Source: Candidatus Jordarchaeales archaeon (GTDB taxonomy: Archaea; Asgardarchaeota; Jordiarchaeia; Jordiarchaeales; Freyrarchaeaceae). From it: a DNA stretch of 32,000 nucleotides. The position numbers were made by a program, and so were the translations under genes. Positions 11,972 to 15,178 of this stretch are shown one piece after another. Position 1 is the stretch's first letter, and each line of letters starts with the position of its first letter. The notes beneath the pieces are model-generated. The model made no database searches, was not told the DNA's origin, and was given only the letters and a program-made list of their open reading frames with translations. The stretch is taken from positions 284,356 through 316,355 of the forward strand of contig JAWAHN010000002.1 of NCBI GenBank assembly GCA_038889235.1, given 5' to 3'.

Positions 11972-12376
11972 ATGTCTACCGTCTTTCCTGGGGGTTTGCT
12001 CATCCCAGCTGGAATAGTTATAATCGGTTGGGACAGAAAGTCCGGCGCTGTCGCCGAATACTGTTTTCCTGAATGCCTATCTCTCCCTCCAGATTTCGTG
12101 ACACAAGTGTTCTCAGCACACTTTCAGGGAAATCTAGAAAACTTCACCCCCACAGCCGCTCTCCAGGTTTCAGGTCGAAAAGTAGTCAGCTACCTTGTTA
12201 ACATCGGCGAGAAAAAGAAGTGCTTCGCAATACTCCTTCACAAGGAGGAAAAGACGAACGAGTGGATCGAACCACTTAAAACACTGGCATGCGAGATAGA
12301 AAAAAGAGGTGATTTAAAAGTAATCCCATCGCTTTATAAAAAACTCCTCCTAGAAAAGGGGAAAGCTAAACTGTAA
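11972..12376 (+). CDS. Stand-alone uDENN/longin-like protein, paralog of the N-domain of the 4647 ORF
   Basis: IPAGIVIIGWDRKSGAVAEYCFP aligns by eye with LPLGMIVVRWDNRLGAVLEAKYP. Similarity continues through FSAH/YTAH, LQVSGRKVVSY/LRVGDLNVASY and ILLHKEE/LILTPEE. Alternative start TTG 11996. Confidence 0.7.
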   Translation: MSTVFPGGLLIPAGIVIIGWDRKSGAVAEYCFPECLSLPPDFVTQVFSAHFQGNLENFTPTAALQVSGRKVVSYLVNIGEKKKCFAILLHKEEKTNEWIEPLKTLACEIEKRGDLKVIPSLYKKLLLEKGKAKL

Positions 12377-13106
12377 ATTCCACTTCTTTGTAAAAGGTTT
12401 TCCCGTCGACATTAACAGACCTTTTAACCTTTCCCTTTCTTTTCGACATAACTCTAAGTTCTTTCACTGTAAGTCCCTCCCCACATTCCGGAGGGATCAA
12501 CTTCTCTATTACGAACTCGTTTGCGACAAGCATCCTCTTGAAGTCACGGGGGACAACGTCCAAAAAGTCTGGCACCGTTTGTTCAAGCAGTATCTTTAGC
12601 CCATCTCCCTCAACTTTAACCCTGCCTACACAAAAGTTTATATCTCCACCTCCTTCCTCGCCTCCGAGGCTAGCCATCCAGTCTATCCTAGTCTTGCACT
12701 TAACACTCGCCCCCCGAGCAGTCTTAATGCTAAAAAGCATGGTGCACTCGTCGGAGTACTCTTCATATATCCTCCTCAACTCACCCGCCTTAAACGAAGA
12801 GTTCACCTTCACCTTGTACATCTCCCCCTTAGCCTCAACCTTATTCCCACTCTCCTTAAACAGCTCAGTGCACATTTTCCCCAACGCCACCCCACTAACG
12901 CTACAGCTTTCGTCGTCACCCATAAGTCTTACAACAAACCAGCCTATGAGATCCTCATATCCTAAATCGCCCCTCAAAGTCACATAGCCGCCCCTAACGC
13001 TAACTTCTAGTCGGGGACCACCAAAAGTCCCAGCCGAATACTTCACAAACCTCCTGTGGAGCCCCTCATCGCAAAGCCCACTAACAAGCCGAGCCAGCCA
13101 GTGCAA
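12366..13106 (-). CDS. Hypothetical archaeal protein
   Basis: Long ORF with protein-like composition. The likely start is TTG 13106 after GGTGGTGG (MHWLARLV...DEGLHRRFVKYSAGTF). No family recognised with confidence. Confidence 0.7.
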   Translation of the reverse strand: MHWLARLVSGLCDEGLHRRFVKYSAGTFGGPRLEVSVRGGYVTLRGDLGYEDLIGWFVVRLMGDDESCSVSGVALGKMCTELFKESGNKVEAKGEMYKVKVNSSFKAGELRRIYEEYSDECTMLFSIKTARGASVKCKTRIDWMASLGGEEGGGDINFCVGRVKVEGDGLKILLEQTVPDFLDVVPRDFKRMLVANEFVIEKLIPPECGEGLTVKELRVMSKRKGKVKRSVNVDGKTFYKEVEFTV

Positions 13107-13221
13107 GTCCACCACCGAGAGAAGAAAGAAGCCAATCAACATTAAAACCTTCCCCAAAAGTCAAACGTTATTAGGAGGCTCAAACAATACATGTTTAAAA
13201 ACAGGTGGAGGCTTAACCAAA

Positions 13222-13959
13222 ATGGCCGCCAGAAAATACCACCTCGCAGTAGGAATACTAATATTCGCGACATTCACCGCGCTCTACTACAAATGGTACC
13301 TTGGAATCTGGTCGCTCACACAAGTAGGCGAAACAGCTTTCTTTCACCTCCGCTCCATCACACTGAGAGACATTGTTTGGATAACCGTAGCGTTTTTCCT
13401 CTCCCTAACCGGAGCTGAAATCGCGGACTTTGACTATGCAGTAACATGGATGGATCACCGTGACTGGCTCACCCACTCCGCCATAATACCATCAATACCC
13501 GCCATCGTAGTTCTACTCTCAACGTTCAACGATACCTTCATGCAGGAACCACGCCTAGGTCTATCCCTCCTACTAGCAGTAATCCCCCTAGTACTCGCAG
13601 CAGCCTCCCATCTCATAATAGACATATTCCCCAGCATACCCATCGAGGAACTCGCCAAAAAAGGAAAATACGTCGAACTAGCAATCCGAATGGCTGACAG
13701 TGTAACCAGAGGAATGACCCTAACAGAGTTCAACAAAAGAATGTCCGGAGGCTACCTAATACACTTCTGGTGGAGCATCAAAACAGAGAAAGGAAAAAAG
13801 AAACGCACACTAAACGAAAAAGAAACAAAAACCTGGCTGATAACCAACGGACTCATACTGACAGTAGTAGCGCTAACCCTCCTAGCAAGGTACATCATAC
13901 TTGAAACACAAATACTCCCACTCCTTCAAATAACACACACCCTACCCGCCATCAGCTAA
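13222..13959 (+). CDS. Membrane metal-dependent hydrolase, YdjM/DUF457-like
   Basis: Ordered motifs HLAVG, ADFD, HRDWLTHS and SHLIID within hydrophobic segments. GGAGG SD and TTTAAAAA TATA upstream. Confidence 0.7.
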   Translation: MAARKYHLAVGILIFATFTALYYKWYLGIWSLTQVGETAFFHLRSITLRDIVWITVAFFLSLTGAEIADFDYAVTWMDHRDWLTHSAIIPSIPAIVVLLSTFNDTFMQEPRLGLSLLLAVIPLVLAAASHLIIDIFPSIPIEELAKKGKYVELAIRMADSVTRGMTLTEFNKRMSGGYLIHFWWSIKTEKGKKKRTLNEKETKTWLITNGLILTVVALTLLARYIILETQILPLLQITHTLPAIS

Positions 13960-14081: not shown

Positions 14082-14173
14082 GGGCGGGTAGTCTAGCCTG
14101 GTTATGACGCCACACGAAAAGGGCGAAGCTTACGACGTGGAGGTCCCAGGTTCGAATCCTGGCCCGCCCACCA
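14082..14173 (+). tRNA. tRNA-Val(TAC) with encoded CCA and a 14-nt intron at position 30/31
   Basis: Acceptor stem GGGCGGG/CCCGCCC plus A-CCA; D arm GTCT-AGCCTGGTTA-TGAC; T arm CCAGG-TTCGAAT-CCTGG. The anticodon stem CCACG/CGTGG with loop CT-TAC-GA is restored by removing 14114-14127. Confidence 0.93.
14114..14127 (+). other. Non-canonical tRNA intron (30/31) with relaxed bulge-helix-bulge motif
   Basis: Intron ACGAAAAGGGCGAA. The central 4-bp helix CGCC (14108-14111)/GGCG (14122-14125) is flanked by 3-nt bulges AC|A and AA|G, whose cut sites match both splice junctions. Confidence 0.85.
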
Positions 14174-14264: not shown

Positions 14265-14987
14265 TTACGTTTCACTGAATAATTTCTTCAACCTCTCCAG
14301 TTCAGCCAACATAGCACTTCTCAACTCATTAATCGACAACGCCTCTGAAGAAGGTGTACCTCCCGGAATAGACACAGAAACAGCTGACGGTACTGCAGAT
14401 GGTGCAACAGGCGTTGCTGGCATCGCTCTGGGCGGTGCTGCTGGCGGCGCCGCTGGTGGTGCTGCCGGTGGTGCCTTCGGCGCTGCTGGCGGTGCTGCTG
14501 GCGGCGCCGCTGGTGGTGCTGCCGGTGGTGCCTTCGGCGCTGCTGGCGGTGCTGCTGGCGGCGCCGCTGGTGGTGCTGCCGGTGGTGCCTTCGGCGCTGC
14601 TGGCGGTGCTGCTGGCGGCGCCGCTGGTGGTGCTGCCGGTGGTGCCTTCGGCGCTGCTGGCGGCGCCGCTAGGGGGGTTGTTACCGTGACTTCTTTTGTC
14701 TCTATTAGTGGTGTTTTTTCAGCGCGTTCTATGAACATGTCGAAGACTGTTTCTGGTTCTTTTATTGCGAATGTCTCTATTTCTGGTATTGTTGTGACTA
14801 TTTCTTCTATGGGTGTTGTTTCAATGCTTTTAGCTAGTTTCTCTATTTCTTTTTGGATTTTCTTGATTGAAGTTATGTAGGCATTGTGTATTTTCTGAAA
14901 GTTTGCGAAGTATTTTTCTGATGTACTTATGAGTGATTTGCAAAGGTTGATCATGGCTTTAAGGGCTTTCTCTTCCTTTCTAGGCAA
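14265..14987 (-). CDS. Hypothetical Ala/Pro-repeat protein with N-terminal helical region and C-terminal WH2-like helix
   Basis: TTG start after GAGGGG. Helical N-terminus, T/E-rich linker, (AAPKAPPAAPPAAPPAAPP)x4, then NELRSAMLAELERLKKLFSET. Confidence 0.8.
   Translation of the reverse strand: MPRKEEKALKAMINLCKSLISTSEKYFANFQKIHNAYITSIKKIQKEIEKLAKSIETTPIEEIVTTIPEIETFAIKEPETVFDMFIERAEKTPLIETKEVTVTTPLAAPPAAPKAPPAAPPAAPPAAPPAAPKAPPAAPPAAPPAAPPAAPKAPPAAPPAAPPAAPPAAPKAPPAAPPAAPPAAPPRAMPATPVAPSAVPSAVSVSIPGGTPSSEALSINELRSAMLAELERLKKLFSET
14431..14670. repeat. Four perfect 57-bp tandem repeats plus a 12-bp partial unit, in frame
   Basis: Unit GGCGGTGCTGCTGGCGGCGCCGCTGGTGGTGCTGCCGGTGGTGCCTTCGGCGCTGCT starts at 14431, 14488, 14545 and 14602 with no mismatches. 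Confidence 0.97.
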
Positions 14988-15178
14988 AGCAGTCCCCTCT
15001 CAAATACAATATTTCTCTTCTCAGTTCTACTTAAAGGTTATTCCTCCTGTGATTTTTAGTGGTATTTTTTATATATGAATTTTGTCGCAAAACGTTCTGG
15101 TTTGATCCGGGGGCTTTGCTGGGCGGAATGTCTCTCTGGTTTGTTTTTGCGTCTCTTACTGTGGGGTTTACATGGTTG

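Follow-up and report, generated by a model that had tools for sequence, protein, structure and literature searches.

A conserved gene beside a tRNA gene

The window, by which we mean the whole 32,000-nucleotide stretch that was analysed, carries on its minus strand a monocistronic gene for a 240-aa protein, which converges on an intron-bearing tRNA gene and is separated by a 190-bp gap from an upstream CAAX-protease gene. The gene belongs to a family whose two layouts we call type A and type B, and it is of type A. Its features, in coordinates of the window and with AlphaFold2 abbreviated to AF2, are as follows:

14265..14987, minus strand: whole coding sequence of the type A family gene (240 aa, TTG start, TAA stop at 14265-14267)
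14994..14999, minus strand: Shine-Dalgarno-like hexamer GAGGGG, 6 nt 5' of the TTG, read from the sequence
14820..14981, minus strand: N-terminal long helix, residues 3-56 (AF2 pLDDT >90), a probable coiled-coil oligomerisation element
14715..14756, minus strand: short helix, residues 78-91, with the acidic-aromatic motif E-T-V-F-D-M-F (alignments A1 and A6; weak AF2 helix)
14430..14663, minus strand: Ala/Pro tract, residues 109-186, of (APPA)n type with a Lys every 19 residues; predicted disordered or PPII spacer
14271..14333, minus strand: predicted C-terminal amphipathic docking helix, residues 219-239 (AF2 pLDDT ~88; alignments and profile searches)

The order of CAAX-protease, type A and tRNA genes is common only to the order to which this genome belongs (the Jordarchaeia/Freyarchaeia group), and within the window we found no actin, profilin or gelsolin gene beside the type A gene. 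The tRNA gene (14082-14173, plus strand) lies 92 nt downstream of the type A stop codon and scores 49.7 bits to the Rfam tRNA model, with ARAGORN naming no anticodon. One RNA-library contig (run X4) skips 56 nt of it, from 14096 to 14153, which is longer than the 14-nt intron proposed earlier; the skip may come from a related tRNA gene. Two further ORFs nearby, at 12366-13157 (minus strand, 263 aa) and 13222-13959 (plus strand, 245 aa), have no Pfam match and are conserved and syntenic in a congener locus (L022), and the second resembles a multi-pass membrane protein.

The TTG start, the GAGGGG hexamer and the spacing between them are all kept in three congeners (L002-L004), and comparison with three congeners gave pN/pS ratios of ~0.1-0.2 for the N-terminal helix and again for the final 30 codons. 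Because both ends show such low ratios and full-length homologs occur across the phylum, the ORF is not a chance one; judged by these comparisons, it is under purifying selection and is a real, conserved gene. A relative that matches the 5' part and the 3' part of the gene at ~95% identity is present on contigs of two metatranscriptome libraries from one study, and 7 of the 10 coding differences between the two are synonymous, including both of those in the end helix. Coverage in that RNA library ends ~10 nt upstream of the start codon and that of a DNA run continues across the intergenic region, an edge that hints at transcription of the gene; the contigs themselves are no proof of it, DNA carry-over being possible. 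RNA run X7 yielded zero raw reads on this stretch in the 3% of the run that was read.

Anatomy of the encoded protein

We modelled the 240-aa protein with AF2 on a 15-sequence alignment and obtained a chain that is disordered between the helices at residues 78-91 and 219-239. The helical N-terminus, the Ala/Pro tract of about 80 residues and the C-terminus quoted by the earlier note, which had been made from the letters of the DNA, were all borne out by the ORF and the model. In its best heptad register, the N-terminal helix places L, I, V, M or F at 10 of 15 a/d positions. A Pfam scan of the whole protein returned a single sub-threshold match to DUF713 over residues 4-58 (17 bits, against a cut-off of 24.5). 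Within the short second helix, F82 is invariant in alignment A1 and is kept in at least 90% of sequences in the wider alignment A6.

The Ala/Pro tract spans 78 residues, of which 49% are Pro and 46% Ala, with 17 PP pairs and a longest Pro run of two. It is encoded by a 57-bp tandem repeat at 14431-14670 (4.2 copies, 98% identity). No contig from the public runs spans the middle of this array (window 14434-14565), and the copy number in the window may be variable in the population or partly an assembly choice. Tract length differs between relatives: the four genomes in the genus have 35 to 100 residues and the order as a whole has 29 to 101, so that the tract behaves like a spacer of adjustable length.

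No other part of the proteins in this Asgard-wide family is as conserved as the C-terminal helix. The protein ends in ...SINELRSAMLAELERLKKLFSET, and the family motif at this position reads L-R-x-x-M-[LM]-x-E-[LI]-x-R-[LI]-K-[KE]-[LI]-[FM], in which L222, M226, E229, R232 and K234 are invariant in both alignments, and R223 is invariant in A1 and nearly so (at least 90%) in A6.

Distribution in Asgard archaea

The genome (2.14 Mb, 95% complete) has one eukaryote-like actin gene, which scores 464 bits to the Pfam Actin family PF00022, and we found no second actin-family gene in it. The earlier note had pictured an Asgard host with actin, and the host, a member of the Jordarchaeia, is just that. 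The gene at 14265-14987 is the only motif-bearing gene in this genome. Type A proteins, at ~210-290 aa and including the window protein, combine four elements: a long N-terminal helix, a short helix bearing F82, a lineage-specific Pro-rich repeat tract and an LRxxM(L/M)xE(L/I)xR(L/I)K terminus. Full-length homologs with all four elements extend from the genus through the family and order to several further Asgard families; all four align with members from Freyarchaeum (the same-order genome G006, Candidatus Freyarchaeum deiterrae), Odinarchaeum (G011, Odinarchaeum yellowstonii LCB_4), Atabeyarchaeum and Loki-labelled metagenome-assembled genomes (MAGs). In the species-genome collection, relatives go under the titles Candidatus Jordarchaeales or Jordarchaeia.

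Searching Asgard proteomes for the C-terminal motif, a check that the earlier note had proposed, gave matches to a 36-position C-terminal profile in 335 of 400 genomes (79 of 90 high-quality ones), and none in the 14 genomes of four families that have only divergent actin. The motif is rare: when 1.84 billion protein cluster representatives were searched with a 35-position C-terminal profile, only 67 matched at E<=1e-3. Every member with a named source is annotated "hypothetical protein" and comes from an Asgard MAG, and the source-named members come from actin-bearing Asgard only. The family is unnamed and Asgard-specific, and the window protein is an undescribed Asgard adaptor that is plausibly linked to actin.

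Paralogs and other carriers of the end helix

The second layout, type B, is shorter (~135-160 aa) and is found in many Loki-type genomes as well. Type B proteins (e.g. L075, L077 and L017) begin with a helical or coiled-coil head, contain true polyproline (PPPPPG runs) and share the helix core, after which comes a basic tail (K-R-R-T or K-R-K); the type B protein of genome G167 carries an additional acidic run. A search for longer proteins, such as gelsolins, that share residues 1-80 of type B found none. Set against WASP and VASP sequences, the type B tail has what we take to be canonical WH2 spacing, and it fits better than the window protein does. The second half of the type B motif is a non-amphipathic basic tail (moment 0.1-0.2). 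The conserved neighbour of the type B gene encodes an Elf1-like Zn-ribbon protein.

The end-helix motif also terminates multi-pass membrane proteins and follows PPPPP in small-GTPase proteins. In some small-GTPase proteins and in others it precedes a Cys-rich Zn domain (CPxCG...NH...GIPCCxC), with one to three copies in the latter. One protein (P0014) has three tandem N-terminal copies, and in a TM/TIR-like protein (P0039) the motif is internal, before the TIR-like domain. Its presence on membrane and small-GTPase proteins marks it as a mobile docking module, and this spread over unrelated carriers fits a portable peptide for docking a partner, one that is not tied to a single fold. Among metagenomic proteins, P0014, P0018, P0034, P0054, P0072, P0077 and P0078 carry the motif in other architectures. 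Membrane-anchored versions (L070:79-1590, plus strand, in G112; L016 and L014, in G028 and G047; P0058 and P0064) have several TM helices (one or two in G028 and G047) that lead into a coiled coil, then a Pro-rich arm and finally the end helix.

Genomic and phyletic links to actin

In family f9 (135 genomes, mostly labelled Lokiarchaeota by their submitters), the type A ortholog lies upstream of an actin paralog on the same strand; this paralog has 373 aa, scores 296 bits to PF00022 and is 43-44% identical to lokiactin. The order held in all seven f9 loci read, and hand-matched coordinates placed both genes on the same contig and strand in 101 of 104 f9 genomes from at least 11 genera. The gap between them is at most 1.3 kb in ~90 genomes, with the two genes either directly adjacent or separated by one PIG-L gene. 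This adjacency is limited to one clade and may reflect one evolutionary event.

The f9 genes form part of a conserved three-gene cluster of small alpha/beta protein, type A protein and actin paralog (L027:7433-10049; also L025, L026, L058, L067-L069 and L095), with a PIG-L deacetylase gene sometimes inserted between the type A gene and the actin paralog. The small alpha/beta gene is divergent from the type A gene in L025, L027 and L095 (91-97-aa copies) and co-directional with it in L058.

The end-helix motif is present in nearly all lokiactin-bearing families. In families f17, f19, f32 and f11, the best actin is only a divergent one (E 1e-116 to 1e-146; 52-56% identity in f17 and f11), and the 36-position profile matched in none of their 14 genomes. 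These four families may be interrelated, and the absence may therefore count as few independent events. The evidence for a link to actin is indirect throughout, consisting of the f9 synteny, the absence of the motif where actin is divergent, and the polyproline and more WH2-like tail of type B.

Comparison with WH2, Ena/VASP and other known systems

On monomeric actin, the WH2 motif occupies the cleft that separates subdomains 1 and 3. The earlier note had called the C-terminus WH2-like, and part of that description stood: there is an amphipathic helix, with M226, L227 and L230 on one face of the predicted helix and M226 invariant, and there is an M-L-x-x-L core followed by a basic pair. Membership in the WH2 family did not stand. 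The LKKT/V box of WH2 motifs consists of Leu, two basic residues and Thr or Val, in extended conformation a few residues after the helix (PMC9433394, PMC3034019). In the window protein, L-K-K-L lies two residues past the core, ends in Leu and sits inside the continuous AF2 helix 219-239; variants at this position in the family are LKKI, IKEI, LKKY, LREI and LKRL. At E<=10, Pfam WH2 (PF02205) matched neither residues 195-240 nor any of six further family members, and it matched none of 22 family C-termini, a null that excludes only a recognisable match, since HMMER filters lose very weak ones. As queries against the PDB, a distant member, a tail of 28 aa and the profile of the C-terminus drew only coiled-coil noise or trivial E-L-x-R-L-K matches. 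We therefore did not file the protein as a WH2 member, given the absence of a PF02205 match, the spacing, the Leu/Ile ending and the unbroken helix. Both caveats raised with the original claim, the two-residue spacing between helix and LKKL and the PP pairs in place of long poly-Pro runs, hold.

Compared with WASP, WAVE, WIP and thymosin-beta4, the window protein likewise has an M-L-x-x-L helix and then Leu and two basic residues, placed after a Pro-rich segment; it differs in its spacer (2 versus ~5 residues), in Leu/Ile rather than Thr/Val at the fourth position, in the continuous predicted helix and in having no HMM match. Asgard gelsolins contain LKKT-type motifs between their domains (LRRV, LKHV and LVDV/LKDV), and crystal structures show them in contact with actin (PMC9433394). 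Those motifs are extended linkers within the gelsolin fold, whereas here we see a free terminal helix on a carrier of coiled-coil/Pro-rich build, and no gelsolin domain. In the literature searched, WH2-like motifs in Asgard are described only inside gelsolins.

The G-actin-binding site (GAB) of VASP is itself WH2-like: its hydrophobic residues are conserved, and it has an LxxV/T box in which x is basic (PMC3034019). In Ena/VASP proteins the GAB, an F-actin-binding site (FAB) and a tetramerising coil belong to the EVH2 part, which accompanies the proline-rich region. Ena/VASP proteins and the window protein have three things in common: a coil for oligomerisation (a probable one in the window protein), a region rich in proline, and a short amphipathic helix that bears a basic patch. 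Unlike Ena/VASP, the window protein has the order inverted, its sole long coil being N-terminal and its helix C-terminal; it has no EVH1 domain and no recognisable FAB, PP pairs instead of GPPPPP runs, and no sequence match to any Pfam family. VASP and EVH1 profiles found no match in the protein, and VASP also none at E<=10 in the 22 C-termini. These likenesses do not show common descent with Ena/VASP, and the end helix of the window protein may still work like a WH2 or GAB helix.

We also considered an ESCRT-III MIM1 helix because of the R-L-K-K-L ending. The MIM1 consensus is (D/E)xxLxxRLxxL(K/R), carried on an ESCRT-III Snf7 core. The protein does not fit this candidate: there is no Snf7 match, and with R232-L233 taken as the RL pair, the -3 position is E229 rather than Leu and the last position F237 rather than K/R. 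A further likeness is to FtsZ, in which a variable disordered linker leads to a short conserved C-terminal peptide that docks partners. The window protein similarly has a linker of variable length ending in a conserved docking peptide (as predicted), although its carrier is not a polymerising GTPase and has no sequence relation to FtsZ.

Proposed mechanism and alternatives

The anatomy, its conservation, the reuse of the end helix and its ties to actin in gene order and phyletic distribution are the observations on which our proposal builds. The layout of heptad helix, Pro-rich arm and terminal amphipathic helix with an R-L-K-K basic patch counts in favour of a multivalent adaptor. The N-terminal 54-residue helix would pair chains into a coiled coil, the Ala/Pro tract would act as a stiff arm of variable length, and the C-terminal amphipathic helix would serve as a docking peptide that captures a conserved partner. 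That partner would be actin, meaning the single lokiactin here and actin or a paralog in other lineages (in f9 perhaps the adjacent paralog), with the end helix used like WH2 or the Ena/VASP GAB helix. An oligomer would then use its end helices to keep several actin subunits close together or close to a site, as a clustering or tethering factor. That the chains oligomerise, that the partner is actin and that polymerisation might be affected are our inferences. As a whole, an oligomeric Asgard adaptor whose end helices dock actin is the reading that we favour, tentatively and as a real possibility; that the end helix is a true binding element for monomeric actin or an actin paralog we hold to be credible and somewhat doubtful.

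Some published work on Asgard actin counts against this proposal. The text on its co-immunoprecipitation names profilin, gelsolins and an Arf, and no protein of the present kind (preprint 10.1101/2025.11.30.690169). Genome G167 is probably L. ossiferum B35, judging by three of its genes used for calibration (actin and two gelsolins), which follow one another as in the sequential gene numbers of the co-immunoprecipitation table; among the rows listed for that table, we found none at the computed weights of the G167 orthologs (29.08, 26.8 and 26.43 kDa). Likewise, the weights of the neighbour genes of the G167 orthologs had no match among the table rows listed (supplement 2, 10.1101/2025.11.30.690169). 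Loki and Odin profilins are reported not to bind VASP polyproline, and a Pfam search for profilin found no match in this genome, nor in the controls.

The alternative that survives best keeps the same adaptor and has the C-terminal helix dock a non-actin partner from the membrane-trafficking or GTPase machinery, for example a small alpha/beta protein of 84-97 aa. We consider this unlikely, if worth serious attention. The motif does occur on small-GTPase proteins, sometimes before the Cys-rich Zn domain, and the small alpha/beta protein is the sole neighbour common to four lineage groups (f9, f12, Freyarchaeum f2 and Odinarchaeum f3), at loci that include the following:

L062:7173-7427, plus strand: small alpha/beta protein
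L025:7452-7727, minus strand: small alpha/beta protein
L060:8267-8539, minus strand: small alpha/beta protein
L084:10035-10325, minus strand: small alpha/beta protein

However, only 181 of the 400 Asgard genomes yielded this protein, it was not found in many motif-bearing families (f5, f23, f25, f13 and f16), the copy in the present genome lies on another contig (G000:C1:695937-696197), and the loci compared show no conserved GTPase or trafficking neighbour of the type A gene. The small alpha/beta protein has no Pfam match, and its Freyarchaeum copy (WXG41239.1) is annotated as hypothetical. Its AF2 model (pLDDT 86) gave a best E of 0.31 in Foldseek against the PDB and a best Z of 4.1 in the wide VIA-align search, and an Atlas search with the protein gave no usable match.

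A homotypic role, in which the end helices of different carriers bundle with one another into a network, is close to the earlier suggestion of a VASP-like oligomerisation coil and strikes us as distinctly unlikely. Being amphipathic, 21 residues long and with hydrophobic residues at roughly heptad intervals, the helix could in principle bundle, E229 and R232 could form inter-helix salt bridges, and the helix is common to unrelated carriers and occurs in tandem in P0014. Yet 21 residues are few for a stable coil, the second half of the type B motif, being basic and non-amphipathic, is ill suited to bundling, and the N-terminal helix is a much better coiled-coil candidate; from the heptad register, a VASP-like coil at the C-terminus appears less likely than an N-terminal one. 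It is very improbable that the end helix targets membrane in the manner of FtsA or MinD and makes the protein a membrane-tethered spacer, as might be thought of a terminal amphipathic helix beyond a long linker in a family of net charge 0 to +4, since its mean hydrophobicity (-0.1 to -0.55) and hydrophobic moment (0.3-0.7) fall below Eisenberg's surface-seeking line, its invariant residues are charged, several carriers are already multi-TM proteins, and the motif can be internal or N-terminal.

Implications for Asgard actin biology

For their cytoskeleton, Asgard archaea are said to depend chiefly on profilins and gelsolins (preprint 10.1101/2025.11.30.690169). The literature that we searched describes no nucleator, elongator or membrane tether for Lokiactin and makes only generic mention of polyproline motifs in Asgard proteins. 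The family presented here is nearly universal in lokiactin-bearing lineages, is hypothetical by annotation and is laid out like eukaryotic actin-assembly factors. Its near-universality, its layout and the reuse of its helix therefore make it a ready set of peptides and proteins for asking whether WH2- or VASP-type regulation predates eukaryotes. If the partner is not actin, the family would still represent an Asgard-specific docking system that joins GTPases, membranes and coiled-coil adaptors. If the end helix does bind actin, Asgard archaea would already have had the eukaryotic logic of an oligomeriser or membrane anchor, a proline-rich arm and a WH2/GAB-like helix, deployed on free adaptors, multi-pass membrane proteins and small GTPases, and the family would fill a gap in archaea as a class of actin-assembly or actin-tethering factors additional to profilin and gelsolin.
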